Shown: in pieces, positions 9,492 through 41,596 of the stretch | How the letters are laid out: each line of letters starts with the position of its first letter | How positions within the stretch are numbered: the first letter of the stretch is position 1 | NCBI GenBank assembly: GCA_964611585.1 | Contig: CAZTAK010000001.1 | Coordinates: forward strand, 11,132 to 75,131 | Origin: an uncultured Alphaproteobacteria bacterium | GTDB lineage: Bacteria > Pseudomonadota > Alphaproteobacteria > SHVP01 | Direction: 5' to 3' | Length of the DNA stretch: 64,000 nucleotides | Translations under genes and position numbers: made by a program | The notes under the pieces: generated by a model | Told to the model about the DNA's origin: nothing | What the model saw: the letters and a program-made list of their open reading frames with translations, nothing else | The model's database searches: none

Positions 9492-10487
9492 TTGAACGAT
9501 CCCGGGCAACAAGAAGTTCTCGTCATCAAGCACGGTGCGCTCGGCGATATGGTGCTGGCGACCGGCCCCTTCGGCGCCATCCGGGCGCATCACGCGCGCG
9601 CGCACATCACCTTGCTGACGACCAGCGCCTACGCGGAAATGATGCAGGGCTCGGGTTGGTTCGACGAAATCTGGATCGACAGCAAACCCACGCTCTGGCA
9701 ACCCGGCGACTGGTTGCGGCTGAGGCGGATGCTGCGCGGCGGGAACTTCGCGCGGGTCTACGACCTGCAGCACAGCGATCGAACTCATATGTACTACCGC
9801 CTGCTCGGCCGGCCGCGCCCGGAATGGTCGGGGATCGCCAAAGGTGCCTCGCACCCCCACACCAACCCCGACCGCGATTCGATGCACACCATCGAACGCC
9901 AAGCCGAACAACTTGCCCAGGCGGGAATCGCGAAAACCCCGCCGACCGATATTTCTTTTCTTGCCGCCGACCTGACGCGGTTACGGCTCGGGGACCGGTA
10001 CGCGCTGCTGGTCCCCGGCGGCGCCCGCCACCGGCCCCGCAAGCGCTGGCCCGCGGGCCGTTACGCGGCGCTGGCGGGTTGGCTGGCCAATCGCGACGTG
10101 CGGCCGGTGCTGATCGGGACGCTCGAGGAACAGGATGTCCTCGACGAAATCGCCGACCGCGTGCCCGCAACTCTCAACCTGTGCCAGGACACCACCTTCG
10201 CCGAGATTGCCGAACTCGCCCGCCACGCCATCGCCGCCGTCGGCAACGACACCGGCCCGATGCACCTGATCGCGGCCGCCGGATGCCCCACGGTGGTGCT
10301 GTTTTCGGCGGAATCGGTGCCGGCGCAAACCGCGCCGCGCGGCGAGGCCGTGACGATTCTCGAGGCGAAAACGCTGGAAACGATGGCGGTCGCGCGGGTT
10401 CTTGTGGCGCTCAAGGATTTCGATCCGGCCTTTTCGCGCGAAGCCAAACCAGGCGAGACCCTGGGGGAGAGCCCCGAGACCGGCTGA
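9492..10487 (+). CDS. glycosyltransferase family 9 (ADP-heptose:LPS heptosyltransferase-like)
   Basis: VLVIKHGALGDMVLATGPF at the N-terminus and the C-terminal GNDTGPMHLAAAAGCPTVVLF motif are characteristic of GT9. The probable start is TTG, 22 nt after the upstream stop. Confidence 0.8.
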   Translation: MNDPGQQEVLVIKHGALGDMVLATGPFGAIRAHHARAHITLLTTSAYAEMMQGSGWFDEIWIDSKPTLWQPGDWLRLRRMLRGGNFARVYDLQHSDRTHMYYRLLGRPRPEWSGIAKGASHPHTNPDRDSMHTIERQAEQLAQAGIAKTPPTDISFLAADLTRLRLGDRYALLVPGGARHRPRKRWPAGRYAALAGWLANRDVRPVLIGTLEEQDVLDEIADRVPATLNLCQDTTFAEIAELARHAIAAVGNDTGPMHLIAAAGCPTVVLFSAESVPAQTAPRGEAVTILEAKTLETMAVARVLVALKDFDPAFSREAKPGETLGESPETG

Positions 10488-10561
10488 CCCGCCGCTGCGG
10501 CCTTGCGCCCACCGGCTCGCACGGGCCACAATCGGCGCATCAACCGCCGGAGGATTGAACC

Positions 10562-11134
10562 ATGCCGAACCCCGTATTGCCGCGCGTTGCGCGCGAGGAC
10601 ATGCCCGAAGTCTTGCGGCAGGGCTATGACACCGCGAAAGAGGTGCGTGGCGACGCGACCTTCTTCGAGATCGGCGCGCACGCCCCCGAAATCCTGGACT
10701 GGTATCACAACAGCTTCTATTCGCGCGTATTCTACGGCGGCAAGGTGGACGTGAAGATCAAGGAACTTCTGCGCTACCGCCTGTCGATGACCCATGGCTG
10801 CGCGTTCTGCAACAAAGGCAACCGGCTCGCCGCCATCAAGGCGGGCGTAACCGAGGACCAGTTCCACAACATCATGAACGAATCGAGCGATGTGTTTTCG
10901 GACGGCGAGCGTGCGGTGCTGAAACTCGCCGATCAGATCGCCATTCCCAACATGCACGGCAATCTCGACAAGGCGCTCTATGACGCCCTGCGGCCCCACT
11001 TTTCCGACGGTGAAATCTTCGAACTCGGCGTGACCGCGGCGGTTCTCACCGGCATGGCGAAGTTCCTGTTCGTGTTCGATCTGGTCGAAAAGGAAGCAAA
11101 CTGCCCGATCGTGCCGCGCCAGGCGGCGGAATAG
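10562..11134 (+). CDS. carboxymuconolactone decarboxylase / AhpD-like family protein
   Basis: It carries the CMD-family core with a HGCAFCN (CxxC) motif and is about 190 aa. Confidence 0.8.
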   Translation: MPNPVLPRVAREDMPEVLRQGYDTAKEVRGDATFFEIGAHAPEILDWYHNSFYSRVFYGGKVDVKIKELLRYRLSMTHGCAFCNKGNRLAAIKAGVTEDQFHNIMNESSDVFSDGERAVLKLADQIAIPNMHGNLDKALYDALRPHFSDGEIFELGVTAAVLTGMAKFLFVFDLVEKEANCPIVPRQAAE

Positions 11135-11135
11135 A

Positions 11136-11207
11136 CCCGCGCACTCGTAATCCCGCGTACTCGAAAACCCGCGCACGGACACACCCGCGCACAAATAGAC
11201 CCGCGCA
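11136..11207. repeat. five direct repeats of CCCGCG(C/T)A phased at exactly 16 bp (starts 11136, 11152, 11168, 11184, 11200), ending 13 nt before the RidA start codon; candidate operator array
   Basis: The repeats were read directly from the sequence gacCCGCGCActcgtaatCCCGCGTActcgaaaaCCCGCGCAcggacacaCCCGCGCAcaaatagaCCCGCGCAtaggagg. The last repeat abuts the AGGAGG RBS. Confidence 0.7.
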
Positions 11208-11220
11208 TAGGAGGCGCCCC

Positions 11221-11610
11221 ATGAACCGGCATTTCAATCCCGCCACCTCGTTTCCGCCGCAGGGGGCCTATAGCCACGGTGTCGATGTGCCGCCGGGATC
11301 GCGCATGGTGTATGTCGCGGGCCAGGTGGGCGTGGACAAAGACGGCAACACGCCCGAGGATTTCGCATCGGAAGCCGACAACGCCTTCGCCAACGTGGTG
11401 CGCGTTCTGGCGGACGCGGGCATGGAACCGACCGATATCGTCAAGCTCAACACCTACCTGACGCGCCCGGAAGACATGGCAACGCTGCGGCCGATTCGCG
11501 AGAAGCACTTCGGCGATCACGCCCCGGCCGCAACGCTGGTGTACGTCGCCGGCCTCGCCGCGCCGATCTGGCATATCGAGATCGAGGCGGTGGCGGCGAA
11601 GAAGGATTAG
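11221..11610 (+). CDS. RidA/YjgF/TdcF family reactive-intermediate deaminase
   Basis: The 129-aa product has RidA-family motifs (PPQGAYSHGV, YVAGQVGVD, NTYLT, HAPAATLVYVAGL). A strong RBS (AGGAGG) is present. Confidence 0.85.
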   Translation: MNRHFNPATSFPPQGAYSHGVDVPPGSRMVYVAGQVGVDKDGNTPEDFASEADNAFANVVRVLADAGMEPTDIVKLNTYLTRPEDMATLRPIREKHFGDHAPAATLVYVAGLAAPIWHIEIEAVAAKKD

Positions 11611-11632
11611 ACACCGGGCAGTGCCAGCCGCG

Positions 11633-11664
11633 AAGAAAGGCCCCGGTGACGGGGCCTTTCTGCT
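11633..11664. terminator. bidirectional rho-independent terminator hairpin between convergent genes
   Basis: The GC-rich stem AAAGGCCCCG-gtga-CGGGGCCTTT is followed by CTGCTG on the + strand and flanked by an A-run on the - strand side. Confidence 0.45.
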
Positions 11665-11686
11665 GCGCGCGGAAAACTCGCTTTGA

Positions 11687-12118
11687 TTAGCCGTGGTGGA
11701 AGTCGTGCATCTCGGCCATGTCGTTCCAGACCCATTGCTCGGCGAACTTGCCGCCGCGGATCAGGAAGCGGTCGATGTAGCGGATGCCTGAATACGGCGA
11801 TCCGTCGAGCCATTTCCCTTGCAGGGTGCCGATACTGAAAACAACGGTGCCATCGGGTGTCTCGGCCACCTCGAAGCGTTCGAATGTCTTGCTGGTGCCG
11901 GTGTAGCGGCTTTTTGAAAACGCCGCCAGGTCTTCCAGTTTCGTGTAGCGCCGCGCGCCCGGGAAAAGCATCTCGAAGTCCGGCGCCAGCATCGTGCGCG
12001 CGGTGTCGAAATCGCGCGCCTCCATGGTCCGCAAATATGTCGCGACCATGCGTTCCGGCGAGCCTTCGGGCAAATCTTCGGGTTCGAGGGATTTCTGTTT
12101 CAGCGCGGCTTCGGCCAT
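11687..12118 (-). CDS. SnoaL-like / NTF2-like fold protein
   Basis: The 143-aa ORF has an NTF2-like pattern (VATYLRTMEARDFDTARTMLAPDFEMLFPG..RFLIRGGKFAEQWVWND). Confidence 0.55.
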   Translation of the reverse strand: MAEAALKQKSLEPEDLPEGSPERMVATYLRTMEARDFDTARTMLAPDFEMLFPGARRYTKLEDLAAFSKSRYTGTSKTFERFEVAETPDGTVVFSIGTLQGKWLDGSPYSGIRYIDRFLIRGGKFAEQWVWNDMAEMHDFHHG

Positions 12119-12285
12119 GGCGGTTCCTCCCAGTGGGTTGTCGCTTCAGGGTAGCGTCCTTCGCCCCAGAGGTTCAATTCCGACTTTGCGGCGCGGTGAT
12201 ATTGGCGCCAAACACCGATAAAAACTAAACATAATCAGATGGTTAGCCGAATTGTGCGGATCGCCATCGAGGTGCCGAAATGCGC

Positions 12286-12457
12286 GGAATCGAACTGGGG
12301 GGTCGCGCCCCAAGAGCGGTTCCGTTCTAATCGGAACCACTCTCGCTTTTTTGTCGCTCACGGCAGCGGACCGATTGGTCCGCGCCTGCGCGGGCGCGCC
12401 GCACAAGCGGCGGGCCGCCTCGCGGCCACGGGCGATTCCAGACGAACCGGAATCGCC
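12286..12457. repeat. intergenic REP/MITE-like repeat element, copy B
   Basis: It shares about 120 bp with copy A (1263-1536), including a hairpin (GAGCGGTTCCG..CGGAACCACTC) plus T-run and the terminal GATTCCAGACGAACCGGAATCGCC inverted repeat. Short terminal inverted GGAATCG motifs are present. It ends exactly at the stop codon of the minus-strand ORF. Confidence 0.6.
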
Positions 12458-12694
12458 CTAGTCGTCGAGATCGACGCGCAGAAGCCCCATCGACCAGACG
12501 AACAGCCGATACCACACGAACCCCAGTCCAAACAGCGCCGCCAGCACCCCCGGCAACATCACCCAAGCCAGCCCACGCGCCTCGAGCCACGCAAAGCCCT
12601 GGACCTGAAACCACCACAGTCCGCCGACCGCCGCCGCGAAAACGACTGCGCCCGCAAATGCGAGCGAAACCAATATCTTGTAGCGTACCGCCAT
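12458..12694 (-). CDS. small hypothetical membrane protein (2 TM)
   Basis: The 78-aa ORF has two hydrophobic helices. It abuts repeat copy B. Support is weak. Confidence 0.3.
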   Translation of the reverse strand: MAVRYKILVSLAFAGAVVFAAAVGGLWWFQVQGFAWLEARGLAWVMLPGVLAALFGLGFVWYRLFVWSMGLLRVDLDD

Positions 12695-12939
12695 CGCTGC
12701 CTACTGGCCTCCCCTCGGCCCACACGTGGCCGATCGCAAAGCGCCGCCTGGGTGGCCCCTCCCGGAACGGCCCCCTTGGCGCCCCCTGATCCGCCCTTGG
12801 CAGCATTAGCGCGCGGCAGCGCGCGGTCAAGGCGCGCGTATCGAACGGGCTTGTCGCGGTTGCGGGCAGTCTCTAGGTTTGAAGGCGGTGGCGCCAGTCC
12901 GGCGGGCGCCGAACCCGCCACAACCCTAGGGCCCGTTTC

Positions 12940-14217
12940 ATGGGAATGACGCTTTCCGAGAAGATAATCGCCAGGGCCTGCGGGCAGGATTCGGTGCGGC
13001 CGGGTGAAATCGTGACCTGCAAGGTCGATCTCGCCATGACCCACGATTCGAGCGGGCCGCGCCGCCAGGCGCCGCGCCTGAAGGAACTCGGCGTCAAGGT
13101 GTGGGACCCGGACAAGGTGGTGATCCTTACGGATCACTACGTTCCGGCGGTCGATGCGCTGAGCGCGGAGATCCTCAAACTCACACGCGACTGGGTCAAA
13201 GAACAGGGGATAAAGAATTTCTACGACATGCAGGGCATCTGCCATGTCGTGCTGCCCGAGCGCGGCCACCTGCACCCGGGCCAGTTCGCCGTCGGCGGTG
13301 ATTCCCACTCGCCCACCGGGGGCGCGTTCGGGACCTTCATGATCGGGGTCGGCGCCACCGATATGACCGGCGTTCTGGCGACCGGCGAAATCTGGGTCAA
13401 CGTACCGCCGACCATCCTGGTGCGCTGGACCGGCGATCTTCCCGAATACGTCACCGCCAAGGACATGATGCTGCGGCTGTGCGGCGAGATCGGCCTTAAC
13501 GGCGCCAACTACAAGGTCGTTGAGTTCGCCGGCAATGGCGTGAGCGCGCTCTCGATGGACGAACGCATGGTGCTGCCCAACATGACCGCCGAAGTCGGCG
13601 CCAAAACCGGCATCATTGCCCCCGACGCGGTGACGGTGGAATGGCTAAAAGCCGCGGGCGCGGAAACAGCGGGCGCGCTGGACTGGTTTTCGGACGAGGA
13701 CTGCGAGTACGAGAGTGTGTTGGAATTCGATGCCTCCACACTGTCACCACAGGTGGCGGCGCCGCACAGTCCGGCCAATGCCGCGCCGGTAGAGGACTTC
13801 AAGGACGTTGCCGTCGATCAGGCCTACATCGGCGCCTGCACCGGCGCGAAACTCGAAGACCTGCACATGGCGGCCGAGATCGTCCGCGGCCAGACCGTCG
13901 CCGAGGGAACGCGCTTTCTGGTGGCGCCCGCCTCAACGCGAATTACGGCGCAAGCCGCCGCCGACGGGACGCTGGCGACGCTGACCGCGGCAGGTGCAAT
14001 CTTGCTGCCGTCCGGTTGCGGCGCGTGTGCGGGCCTCGGCGCGGGCGTGTTGTCGGCAGGCGAGACCTGCATCTCGTCCACCAACCGTAATTTCAAGGGC
14101 CGCATGGGCCCCTCGGACGCTTCCGTTTATCTGGGATCGCCCTATGCAGTGGCGGCCGCGGCGGTGGCCGGGCACATCGCCGATCCCCGCGACATCAGCA
14201 ACCGGAGGGCATCATGA
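12940..14217 (+). CDS. aconitase-family dehydratase large subunit, archaeal-type LeuC-like (LeuC/homoaconitase/dimethylmaleate hydratase family)
   Basis: The 425-aa product aligns along its length with small-type LeuC (MGMTLSEKI, VDLAMTHD, GGDSHSPTGGAFG, the Fe-S cysteines in SGCGACAG and ISSTNRNFKGRMG). Confidence 0.85.
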   Translation: MGMTLSEKIIARACGQDSVRPGEIVTCKVDLAMTHDSSGPRRQAPRLKELGVKVWDPDKVVILTDHYVPAVDALSAEILKLTRDWVKEQGIKNFYDMQGICHVVLPERGHLHPGQFAVGGDSHSPTGGAFGTFMIGVGATDMTGVLATGEIWVNVPPTILVRWTGDLPEYVTAKDMMLRLCGEIGLNGANYKVVEFAGNGVSALSMDERMVLPNMTAEVGAKTGIIAPDAVTVEWLKAAGAETAGALDWFSDEDCEYESVLEFDASTLSPQVAAPHSPANAAPVEDFKDVAVDQAYIGACTGAKLEDLHMAAEIVRGQTVAEGTRFLVAPASTRITAQAAADGTLATLTAAGAILLPSGCGACAGLGAGVLSAGETCISSTNRNFKGRMGPSDASVYLGSPYAVAAAAVAGHIADPRDISNRRAS

Positions 14218-14720
14218 GCGGTACGGACGGCGGCGGCACCGCCTGGGTCTATGGCGACGACATCGACACGGATTCGCTGGCGCCGGGGCTCTATCTCAAA
14301 GGGTCGATGGAGGAGATGGCGAAGCATTGCCTCGAAGCGATCGACCCCACCTTCGCCGCCGAATCCAAGGAAGGCGACTTCGTGGTGGCGGACGAGAATT
14401 TCGGCATCGGTTCGTCGCGCGAACAGGCGGCGCAGTGCCTGTCGATATTGGGCGTCAATGTGGTGCTGGCCAAGAGTTTCGCGCGTATCTTTTACCGCAA
14501 CGCTTTCAACGTCGGTGTCGTGCCGCTGGTGTTCAAAGACGCGGACAAAATCAAGAAAGGCGACCGCCTGCGGGTCGATGCGGCTGCGGGCACGATCGAA
14601 AATCTTACCAGGAACGAGACCTACACCTGCGAGACCGTACCACCGCACCTGATGGAAATCGTTGCCGACGGCGGCCTGATGCCGCATCTGAAAAAGAAAC
14701 TGAAAGGAAAAACGACGTGA
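14214..14720 (+). CDS. aconitase-family dehydratase small subunit (LeuD-like)
   Basis: ATGA overlap with the upstream stop. The product has the LeuD-like swivel domain (VYGDDIDTD, GIGSSREQA). Confidence 0.85.
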   Translation: MSGTDGGGTAWVYGDDIDTDSLAPGLYLKGSMEEMAKHCLEAIDPTFAAESKEGDFVVADENFGIGSSREQAAQCLSILGVNVVLAKSFARIFYRNAFNVGVVPLVFKDADKIKKGDRLRVDAAAGTIENLTRNETYTCETVPPHLMEIVADGGLMPHLKKKLKGKTT

Positions 14721-19075: not shown

Positions 19076-19264
19076 AGCTATGGGGCCTCGCTGGCGCCGG
19101 GTGCGGCGTCGGCCGGATCGACCGGCCGCGGCGTCTGCCGGATCGGCCGGGTTCCGCCTCGCGAGGGCGCGCCCCCGCAACCCCGAAGCCTCGATTCGAA
19201 GACTGGGGCGGCCGCCGGTGCCGTGGTTCTAGGGCCGATGCGAAGACAATAGCGATCCGCCCGC

Positions 19265-19490
19265 CGGGCCGTTACGCGGCAAATTGCCGCCCGGCGGCGG
19301 GGCGGCGGCGCCGGCGACGGTCCGATCTCTACGGTTTAGGCGGCGCGCCAAGCGCGCATCAAGTTCGACCGGTTTACGCGGCGCGCCCAGCGCGAATCAT
19401 GTTCGACCGGCTTACGCGGCGCCACAGGCGCCACGGTCCGGTCTCTCGGCTTACGCGGCGCCTCGGGGCGCCACGGTCCGGTCGCTATTG
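19265..19490. repeat. tandem array (about 5 units) of a 38-39 bp GC-rich repeat containing GGCGCC...GGCGCC palindromes
   Basis: The units cggtttaggcggcgcgccaagcgcgcatcaagttcgac, cggtttacgcggcgcgcccagcgcgaatcatgttcgac, cggcttacgcggcgccacaggcgccacggtccggtctct and cggcttacgcggcgcctcggggcgccacggtccggtcgct are contiguous. The array lies between the 3' end of a deacetylase gene and the 5' end of a lipoprotein gene. Confidence 0.7.
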
Positions 19491-39786: not shown

Positions 39787-41487
39787 ATGGCGCACACCAA
39801 AGACCCAAAACTACACGCCTACATTCCCGAGCTGATCGAACAGTTTCGGAAACGCGAAATCAGCCGCCGCGAGTTCCTGCGGACGGCAACGCTTCTGGGC
39901 GTCTCGGCGACCGCCGCCTATGCGGTTGCGGGCCGGATCGACGGCCAGACCTTCGTACCGCAGGCCCGCGCCCAGATGAAGAAGATGGGCGGCCACCTGC
40001 GTTTCGGCATGAGCGTTCAGGAAGTCACCGACCCGGCAATCTTCGACTGGACCGAGAAAGGCAACGGCGCACGGCAAATCGTCGAATCGCTGGTTCGAAT
40101 CGGAAACGACAATATCGCCCGCCCCTATCTGGCGGAACGCTGGGAGGCCTCGGAAAACCTTAAGACCTGGACTTTCCATCTTCGGCGCGGCGTCAAATGG
40201 TCGAACGGGGACACCTTCAACGCCGACGACCTGATCTTCAATATGGAACGCTGGCTCGACCCTGCCACCGGTTCGTCGAACCAGTCCCGGTTCGGCACCA
40301 TGACGACGACCGCTGACACCGGCAAGAAGGACGACAACGGCAATCCGGTTATGTCGACGACCATGACCGGGGGCGCAATTGAGCGGATCGACGATCATAC
40401 CGTGCGCTTTCACCTCAATACGCCGAACGTAGCGATCCCGGAAAGTTTCGGCGACTACCCGGCGTTGATTGTGCACCGGCGGTTTTCGGACGAAGGCGGC
40501 GATCTTTCGAAAAACCCGGTCGGGACCGGCCCCTATCGTCTTGCCGAGTACGTCGTCGGCGAAAAGCTGGTGCTGGAAAAGCGTCCGGCCTCGGAATACT
40601 GGGGCGACGAATTCGCCCTCGACAAGATCACCTACATCGATACCGGCGACGATCCGGCGGCCTCTCTGGCGGCGCTTGCCTCGGGGCAGATCGACATCAA
40701 CCACCAGTTCGGCGTCGAACTGATCGACGCGGTGCAGCAAATTCCGACGCTCAACCTCAATGAAACGCCGACCGCGGCAACCGGCGTCGCCCGAATGCAC
40801 GTTACCGAAAAACCGTTCGATGATCCGCGCGTGCGCAAGGCGATCCGGCTGACCGTCGATCATCAGCGCCTGGTCGATATCGTCTTTCGCGGCCATGGGT
40901 TGCCGTCGGAAGACCACGCCGTGGCGCCCATTCACCCCGAATACGCGGCCCTGCCCGAGGTCAAACGCGACATCGAGCAAGCCAAGGCGCTGTTGCACGA
41001 GGCCGGATTTGATAATGGTCTCGACCTGCAAATCAACTGCGTCGCCAACCCGACCTGGGAGCAGAATTCGTGCACGGCGCTGGCCGAGATGGCGAAGCCC
41101 GCGGGCATCAACATCAAAGTCAACGTCATGCCGGGCGGCAGCTATTGGGGCAAGTGGCTGACTTGGCCGTTCGGTTTCACGTCGTGGGGCCACCGGCCGC
41201 TGGGTATTATCAACCTCGGTCTCGGCTACCGGACCGGCGGCAAATGGAACGAAACGGGGCACAACAACCCGGAGTTCGACAAAGCGCTGGATGAAGCGAC
41301 CGGCATTCTCGATCCCAGGGAGCGCAGCGTCGTGATGGCGAAGGTTGAAAAGCTCTTGCAGGACGACTCGGTGATTTCACAGTCGCTGTGGCGGTCGCTG
41401 TTCAACGCCAACAACAAGAAGGTGAAGGGCTGGACACTCGGCAACGCATTGGAGCATCACCTCAACGACGTGTGGATCGACGCCTGA
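39787..41487 (+). CDS. ABC transporter substrate-binding protein, family 5 (DppA/OppA-like), Tat signal
   Basis: An RBS (GGAGGA) is present. The twin-arginine motif SRREFLRTATLLGVSATAAYA is followed by the SBP_bac_5 pattern. Confidence 0.85.
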   Translation: MAHTKDPKLHAYIPELIEQFRKREISRREFLRTATLLGVSATAAYAVAGRIDGQTFVPQARAQMKKMGGHLRFGMSVQEVTDPAIFDWTEKGNGARQIVESLVRIGNDNIARPYLAERWEASENLKTWTFHLRRGVKWSNGDTFNADDLIFNMERWLDPATGSSNQSRFGTMTTTADTGKKDDNGNPVMSTTMTGGAIERIDDHTVRFHLNTPNVAIPESFGDYPALIVHRRFSDEGGDLSKNPVGTGPYRLAEYVVGEKLVLEKRPASEYWGDEFALDKITYIDTGDDPAASLAALASGQIDINHQFGVELIDAVQQIPTLNLNETPTAATGVARMHVTEKPFDDPRVRKAIRLTVDHQRLVDIVFRGHGLPSEDHAVAPIHPEYAALPEVKRDIEQAKALLHEAGFDNGLDLQINCVANPTWEQNSCTALAEMAKPAGINIKVNVMPGGSYWGKWLTWPFGFTSWGHRPLGIINLGLGYRTGGKWNETGHNNPEFDKALDEATGILDPRERSVVMAKVEKLLQDDSVISQSLWRSLFNANNKKVKGWTLGNALEHHLNDVWIDA

Positions 41488-41596
41488 TTGGGCGGATGCG
41501 CGGGGCCGGCACCGGCCGGACCCGCGCACCCCGCGCGCCCGCCGCAAGGCCGAGGCGGCACGCGGCGTCTGACGCCGATCTGGCCGGCACCAAACT

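Follow-up and report, generated by a model that had tools for sequence, protein, structure and literature searches.

A 16-bp direct-repeat array between a CMD/AhpD-like gene and a RidA-family gene in an uncultured alphaproteobacterium: a probable species-specific minisatellite

Mycobacterial MIRU loci are the textbook example of intergenic minisatellites, with units of 46–100 nt lying between the genes of operons. Known iteron and operator direct-repeat systems have periods of 10–11 or 21–22 bp, and rut sites are usually described with C residues spaced roughly 11–13 nt apart. The array described here lies in a 64 kb stretch of DNA from an uncultured alphaproteobacterium (the window, to which all coordinates refer unless another contig is named), in the spacer between a carboxymuconolactone decarboxylase (CMD)/AhpD-like gene and a gene of the RidA family.

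With intergenic minisatellites and VNTRs within operons, such as MIRU, the array shares the presence of tandem repeats in an untranslated spacer between co-directional genes, a start at the upstream stop codon, an end at the downstream ribosome-binding site and, presumably, an origin by slippage. The units of MIRU are 46–100 nt long, compared with 16 nt here, and MIRU forms a dispersed family whereas the present array is a single locus; in addition, no copy-number polymorphism was seen here, the spacers between the cores have diverged and no small ORF bridges the two genes. By analogy, the array is best filed with the intergenic minisatellites between operon genes, but not as a member of the MIRU family. 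Iteron and operator arrays (plasmid iterons, response-regulator repeats) are similar in that short conserved cores alternate with variable spacers in strict phase, but they differ from the present locus in its 16-bp period, in that Pfam gave no DNA-binding domain among its 16 scanned neighbours (three without any match), in its lack of conservation in relatives and in the absence of other copies in 64 kb. Contingency loci also place a tandem repeat by a gene start, but the units here are imperfect and invariant in number, and their position is neutral to reading frame and promoter spacing. Finally, relatives carry GC stem-loops at the same position between the same two genes, and the array cores resemble the CCGCGG arms of these stem-loops, although the window sequence is unable to form the hairpin and folds no better than shuffled sequence.

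On balance, the array is rather likely to be a species-specific and partly decayed minisatellite that would have originated by slippage across the CMD stop codon, replaced a hairpin and become a passive leader carrying the ribosome-binding site of RidA.

Structure and setting of the array

The array was read from the sequence, and its units were compared with one another and recovered with TRF and a direct-repeat search. It comprises five units on the + strand, spanning 11135–11207, which are listed here with the core before the hyphen and the 7-nt spacer after it.

Unit 1, start 11135, + strand: ACCCGCGCA-CTCGTAA
Unit 2, start 11151, + strand: TCCCGCGTA-CTCGAAA
Unit 3, start 11167, + strand: ACCCGCGCA-CGGACAC
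Unit 4, start 11183, + strand: ACCCGCGCA-CAAATAG
Unit 5, start 11199, + strand: ACCCGCGCA-TAGGAGG

The period is exactly 16 bp in all four intervals, with 8-mer cores starting at 11136, 11152, 11168, 11184 and 11200. TRF detected the array with a period of 16 (score 65/54) and the direct-repeat search returned four copies with spacings of 16, 16 and 16, and the exact phasing of five cores reported in the initial annotation was borne out. The 8-mer CCCGCGCA is found in four of the five units, and unit 2 reads CCCGCGTA, with one mismatch. The conserved block is really 9–10 nt long, ACCCGCGCA(C), and the 9-nt core of the degenerate unit 2, TCCCGCGTA, is two bases off this sequence. Pairwise identity among units is 89 % for the cores and 43 % for the spacers, and the longest exact repeat shared by neighbouring units is 10 nt. 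The repeat search gave no notable inverted repeats around the array.

The array fills the 86-bp gap from the CMD/AhpD-like gene to the RidA gene. Its first base directly follows the TAG stop codon of the CMD gene, and core 5 ends at 11207, one nucleotide short of the AGGAGG Shine–Dalgarno sequence; the last repeat had been described as ending at this motif, which it adjoins but actually stops one base before. If the units are instead counted as GGAATAG-ACCCGCGCA, five complete copies of 16 nt are present, and the first takes in the last 7 nt of the CMD gene. A longer exact repeat was also read from the sequence.

11130–11143, + strand: 14-mer AATAGACCCGCGCA, copy 1, spanning the CMD stop codon and core 1
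11194–11207, + strand: 14-mer AATAGACCCGCGCA, copy 2, 64 nt (four units) downstream of copy 1

The array is genuine, confined to this one place in the window and statistically robust. Phased core pairs with up to two mismatches numbered five in the 64 kb, four of them belonging to the array, against 0.6 expected, and none of 100 shuffles reached five; this excess over the expectation and over every shuffle argues against a chance origin. The core 8-mer itself occurs at chance frequency in the window (13 seen, 11.3 expected), there is no enrichment of the motif outside the array within the 64 kb, and no other exact 8-mer recurs at a constant period of 10–40 nt in at least three copies anywhere in the window. 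Since the 8-mer is not over-represented, phased pairs are, and no other phased array exists in the window, the suggestion that the motif might be ubiquitous at random phasing does not apply to these 64 kb.

The only other place at which the core is found on both strands close together is 41494–41530 (TGCGCGGGGCCGG-CACC-GGCCGGACCCGCGCA), a long GC hairpin just past the stop codon of a gene ending at 41487, which is probably a terminator unrelated to the array. A second duplication-prone spacer, at 19097–19483, holds intergenic tandem repeats of 25 nt × 2.2, 38 nt × 2.4 and 39 nt × 1.9, the units of which contain GC palindromes (e.g. GGCGCC-ACA-GGCGCC) and look like tandemly duplicated hairpins.

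The features that flank the array are as follows.

10562–11134, + strand: CMD/AhpD-like gene, 190 aa (Pfam PF02627, E=1.6e-10), with the TAG stop codon at 11132–11134
11209–11214, + strand: AGGAGG Shine–Dalgarno sequence of the RidA gene, 6 nt before the ATG and occupying the spacer position of unit 5, read from the sequence
11221–11610, + strand: RidA/YjgF/L-PSP family gene, 129 aa (Pfam PF01042, E=2.2e-24), with the ATG at 11221
11635–11660, no strand assigned: GC stem-loop GAAAGGCCCCG-GTGA-CGGGGCCTTTC between the convergent RidA and SnoaL-like genes, read from the sequence

Upstream of the array, two α/β-hydrolase genes, a family-9 glycosyltransferase gene and the CMD gene all lie on the + strand and form a run with short gaps (21, 74 and 86 nt), and no promoter-like or terminator-like sites were predicted between these genes. 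No promoter-like site was predicted in 10300–12400, the array included, and no terminator-like site was predicted at the array. The stem-loop at 11635–11660 probably acts as a bidirectional terminator at the end of the transcription unit; its T run is short, so that a simple terminator scan missed it. Given the same-strand genes, the short gaps, the absence of predicted promoter-like or terminator-like sites and the stem-loop after RidA, the array is most likely part of an mRNA, in which it forms an untranslated spacer between cistrons, and the CMD and RidA genes would be co-transcribed. Pfam found no DNA-binding domain among the 16 flanking proteins, three of which had no Pfam match of any kind. 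Near the start of the window, two consecutive ORFs (277–891 and 916–1260) encode the N- and C-terminal domains of a glutathione S-transferase (GST), the gene for which may be split or frameshifted.

No significant folding was seen for the window spacer: alone it gave z=-1.35, with 17 of 200 shuffles folding equally well, and with its flanks z=0.06. Neither folding nor terminator prediction revealed in it a stable GC-rich stem-loop of the intrinsic-terminator or intercistronic type, and CCCGCGCA self-pairs over 4 bp only, so the hairpin of the relatives cannot form. Of its 86 nt, 37 are C (43 %) and 20 are G (23 %), and its C–G skew of 0.30 ranks at the 98.9th percentile among 86-nt windows of the same strand; a stretch of roughly 80 nt of C-rich, G-poor, unstructured and untranslated RNA, the composition looked for in rut sites, is thus present.

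Several element classes were considered and rejected or dropped. A known structured RNA element was rejected because no Rfam covariance model matched 10500–12950 on either strand at E≤1 and the fold is not significant, and a mobile or plasmid origin because no plasmid match was found for the spacer and there are no notable inverted repeats around the array. With a core of 9–10 nt and spacers of 6–7 nt, the array differs from CRISPR arrays, which have repeats of at least 23 nt and unique spacers of similar length. A promoter inside the array was rejected because none was predicted; CsrA-type GGA sites (CACGGACAC and the Shine–Dalgarno sequence) were dropped since GGA is universal in Shine–Dalgarno sequences, as was a G-quadruplex or i-motif built from the five CCC/GGG runs, the loops of which would be 13 nt.

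The spacer within the species and in relatives

Exact-protein look-ups in ENA, NCBI and Logan yielded the same-species locus in 11 independent metagenome assemblies, which are 99.7–99.9 % identical to the window over 4–6.5 kb. In their consensus sequences, the 86-bp spacer with five units was present in all 11 assemblies and was identical in 10, which argues that the array is not an assembly artefact. The remaining assembly (SRR28208100) differs by one SNP, a G-to-A change that converts CCCGCGTA of unit 2 to CCCGCATA, so that the sole polymorphism of the spacer erodes a core that is already degenerate. The comparison of copy number among strains that had been proposed at the outset therefore gave an invariant number, five in 11 assemblies. 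Because the assemblies are very close to one another, this is evidence against high-frequency switching and says little on long-term constraint. Elsewhere in these assemblies, ERZ23491384 (contig L058, at about 6204) lacks 72 bp, in frame, of a LeuD-like aconitase small-subunit gene in the region corresponding to 14425–14495. The short sequences on either side of this deletion, CGCGAAC and CCGCAAC, resemble each other, and the remaining assemblies agree with the window.

Relatives were gathered by a genome scan with the CMD protein, which gave CMD orthologues at 57 genome loci, together with two protein searches and context look-ups; RidA orthologues from the protein search were 77–82 % identical. 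The collections searched contained no relatives of between 81 % and 99.7 % identity. The nearest relatives by CMD identity (80.5 %, compared with 70–74 % for other groups) are three independent assemblies, L001, L078 and L079, which represent a sister species with the same gene order as the window. Their CMD–RidA spacer is 89 nt long and does not align with that of the window, although the flanking coding DNA does. It holds a different tandem repeat (31 nt × 2.6), in which the terminal 31 nt of the CMD gene, including the stop codon, have been copied twice (…CCGCGGGTTGCTGCGGAATAG / …CCGCGCGTCGCCGCGCAATCG / …CCGCGGGTTGCCGCGGAATAA); the pentamers AATAG and AATAA, which mark this duplication of the CMD 3′ end, are 62 nt apart in L078. 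The sister-species RidA orthologue (L078 3148–3536; also in L001 and L079) is split into 79 and 50 aa by a 1-nt deletion, and is probably a pseudogene given that the deletion is common to three independent assemblies.

In five further relatives, with RidA at ~80 % identity and spacers of 66–80 nt, the CMD–RidA spacer carries a conserved stem-loop, AAGGCCGCGG-YTCGY-CCGCGGCCTTT, followed by GGGAGG.

L206, 2422–2500: stem-loop spacer
L211, 299–364: stem-loop spacer
L212, 299–365: stem-loop spacer
L213, 71–137: stem-loop spacer
L214, 25–91: stem-loop spacer

Ten pairs of this hairpin are kept in all five sequences, the fold z-scores were -4.5 and -3.4, and a short T tract accompanies it. With the hairpin in place, a promoter would not fit ahead of the RidA ribosome-binding site, and the hairpin is therefore probably an intra-operon attenuator or stabiliser. 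Among more distant loci, L009, L017, L021 and L025 have a RidA that is 41 % identical and unrelated spacers without repeats, and in L081–L086 there is no RidA at this position, a flavoprotein gene on the other strand being found instead. The array was absent from the orthologous spacers of L001/L078, L206, L210–L214, L009, L017, L021 and L025. Phased arrays of an 8-mer in three copies numbered eight in 465 kb of the relatives' loci (~once per 58 kb), some in coding sequence and several in intergenic spacers around the CMD orthologue, so that such arrays are no rarity in this group. Tandem arrays of 12–13 nt (× 3) also flank the CMD orthologue in L020 (3887–3922 and 4606–4640) and in L015 (3841–3879).

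Metagenomes were scanned with the pattern ACCCGCGCAC-N6-ACCCGCGCAC, which also matches the 8-bp microsatellite (GCGCACCC)n. At least 119 stretches were found, dominated by (GCGCACCC)n; true 16-bp arrays among the matches listed (L096, L132, L136, L118, L110/L126, L124/L140 and L160) were all in unrelated contexts, and none of the matches listed was homologous to the present array, the search being swamped by the microsatellites. Simple repeats of the CCCGCGCAC type are very common in GC-rich metagenomic DNA, which shows that the GC-rich core readily forms simple repeats. Within contigs L087–L166, (GCGCACCC)n was very common (e.g. L093 2601–2722, L155 812–933, L103, L114, L130, L142 and L156), and in several contigs oppositely oriented arrays flank a terminator-like hairpin, in the arrangement (GCGGGTGC)n – hairpin – (GCACCCGC)n. 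An origin of the array from an 8-bp (ACCCGCGC)n microsatellite was rejected, as it leaves the alternation of core and spacer unexplained; by hand count, the alternate octamers agree with the core at 17 positions out of 40, where roughly 11 would be expected, which is suggestive at most. A topical literature search returned nothing relevant.

Origin of the array and competing explanations

The initial annotation had suggested that the repeats might be a polymerase-slippage hot spot able to phase-vary expression. As an account of origin, this idea gains from the 31-nt × 2.6 repeat of the sister species and from the 14-mer found twice in the window, but as a present-day switch it is not supported. 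The spacer is a hot spot for tandem duplication, since the sister species has an independent duplication at the same place and AATAGACCCGCGCA occurs twice in the window, and the presence of this 14-mer at both 11130 and 11194 indicates that the CMD stop codon was part of what was duplicated. Duplications taking in this codon are seen in both sister lineages. CCGCGG is its own reverse complement, the hairpin arms of the relatives are also direct repeats ~11 nt apart, and the coding tail of CMD (…GCCGCGCCAAGCCGCGGAGTAA) carries the CCGCGG motif again; the arms as direct repeats, together with the motif in the tail, would offer a ready substrate for slipped-strand mispairing.

We propose that the ancestral spacer held a GC stem-loop, the palindromic CCGCGG arms of which acted as a built-in direct repeat favouring slippage, and that the common ancestor of the sister species may already have duplicated the gene end and the hairpin. 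The window lineage would then have expanded a 16-nt piece straddling the CMD stop codon by slipped-strand tandem duplication, and the repeats would have supplanted the intercistronic hairpin. The window core CCCGCGCA resembles the 3′ arm CCCGCGGC of the hairpin, and CCGCGCACTCG of the window resembles CCGCGCAATCG of L078, a likeness that fits a duplication in the ancestor followed by expansion of 16 nt with loss of the hairpin; the strings compared are short and GC-rich, and they suggest rather than prove that the cores are descended from the hairpin arms. The predicted outcome is an 86-nt, C-rich and essentially unstructured untranslated spacer on a CMD–RidA co-transcript, in which the last unit would provide the context for the RidA Shine–Dalgarno sequence. 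The consequence would be passive, in that a hairpin (attenuator or stabiliser) is lost and an open C/A-rich leader precedes RidA. Expression of RidA is then probably coupled more directly to the upstream genes, and the array probably has no dedicated regulator and performs no switching. The short phased arrays in the relatives' loci, the tandem repeats at 19.1–19.5 kb of the window, the chance frequency of the core outside the array and the commonness of CCCGCGCAC-type repeats in metagenomic DNA also speak for a minisatellite.

One aspect of the array is at odds with this account. Deviations from the consensus were found at two of 45 core cells, both in unit 2, compared with 16 of 35 spacer cells (Fisher P=1.7e-5; offset-corrected P ~2e-4 for five units and 3e-3 for units 1–4), and this core-sparing pattern of substitution is not predicted by simple neutral decay of a 16-nt duplication. 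The exact 16-nt spacing kept in all four intervals also counts against a neutral minisatellite. At four-fold degenerate sites of CMD, 49 % differ between the window and L078 (JC distance 0.79), so that an array arising after the split had time for neutral sites to approach saturation; the spacers are near saturation, with 43 % pairwise identity, and the cores are not. Either the cores are constrained, or cores and spacers differ in their history, the cores deriving from the arms of the hairpin and the tail of the gene and the spacers from unrelated segments of loop or linker. Both of these fit the pattern, and an array of binding sites is for this reason retained as a rival.

According to that rival, a putative factor, either a DNA-binding regulator or a protein that binds the intercistronic mRNA, would recognise ACCCGCGCA and bind cooperatively at five sites 16 nt apart, every second site (32 bp or ~3 turns further on) facing the same side of the helix, and would control the transcription or translation of RidA next to its Shine–Dalgarno sequence. 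The conservation of the cores far beyond that of the spacers, the exact phasing, the position of the last site beside the Shine–Dalgarno sequence and the fixed copy number in the 11 assemblies all speak for such an operator, which we nevertheless regard as unlikely, since the array is absent from every orthologous CMD–RidA spacer examined, the motif occurs at chance elsewhere in the 64 kb with no second array, none of the 16 flanking proteins has a DNA-binding domain by Pfam (three being without any match) and promoter prediction gave no candidate site within the array or close to it. Unit 2 is moreover decaying by GC-to-AT changes, including the segregating SNP in its core, and a literature text search for the 8-mer gave only primers and other incidental sequence strings. 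We know of no characterised regulator with a 9-mer direct repeat at a 16-bp period. The cooperative binding of a regulator envisaged in the initial annotation thus found no positive support, the array being absent in orthologous spacers, the motif unused elsewhere in the window and no DNA-binding domain having been found by Pfam in the 16 flanking proteins, three of them without any match. That the five ACCCGCGCA cores are under selection, bound by an undescribed putative factor controlling RidA, and form a recent operator that took the place of the hairpin attenuator is more doubtful still; if true, the array would represent a regulatory site at a very early stage of its existence and be moderately interesting for the evolution of gene regulation.

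The composition of the spacer could also be read as a rut-like, Rho-loading tract between the genes, which would make RidA transcription dependent on ribosome traffic and functionally replace the hairpin attenuator of the relatives. Its C content and skew, the lack of significant structure, its untranslated position within an apparent operon and the hairpin and short T tract that relatives have at this position are all consistent with such a role, but this evidence is compositional as far as the array itself is concerned, C-richness follows automatically from repeating a C-rich core and the 16-nt period does not match the C spacing of ~11–13 nt, and a rut function is accordingly quite improbable. 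Least likely of the readings, and barely credible, is a phase-variable contingency locus in which frequent slippage would alter the count of 16-bp units and thereby switch RidA expression. The tandem structure and the evident proneness of the spacer to duplication over evolutionary time speak for it, yet exactly five units were present in 11 of 11 assemblies from different samples, the units are imperfect, with spacers only 43 % identical and no exact repeat between neighbours beyond 10 nt, and the array lies between a stop codon and a Shine–Dalgarno sequence, outside reading frames and predicted promoters, where a change of 16 nt alters the length of the spacer only and affects no frame or predicted promoter spacing.

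A slippage-derived minisatellite with a passive role remains the explanation that we favour. As it stands, the array matters little, being one more lineage-specific intergenic tandem repeat. It would also be a tidy example of the turnover of an intercistronic spacer, in which a hairpin with palindromic arms seeds tandem duplications that take different forms in two sister species; in one of these lineages the duplications would have erased the hairpin, probably changing the coupling of the downstream to the upstream gene.
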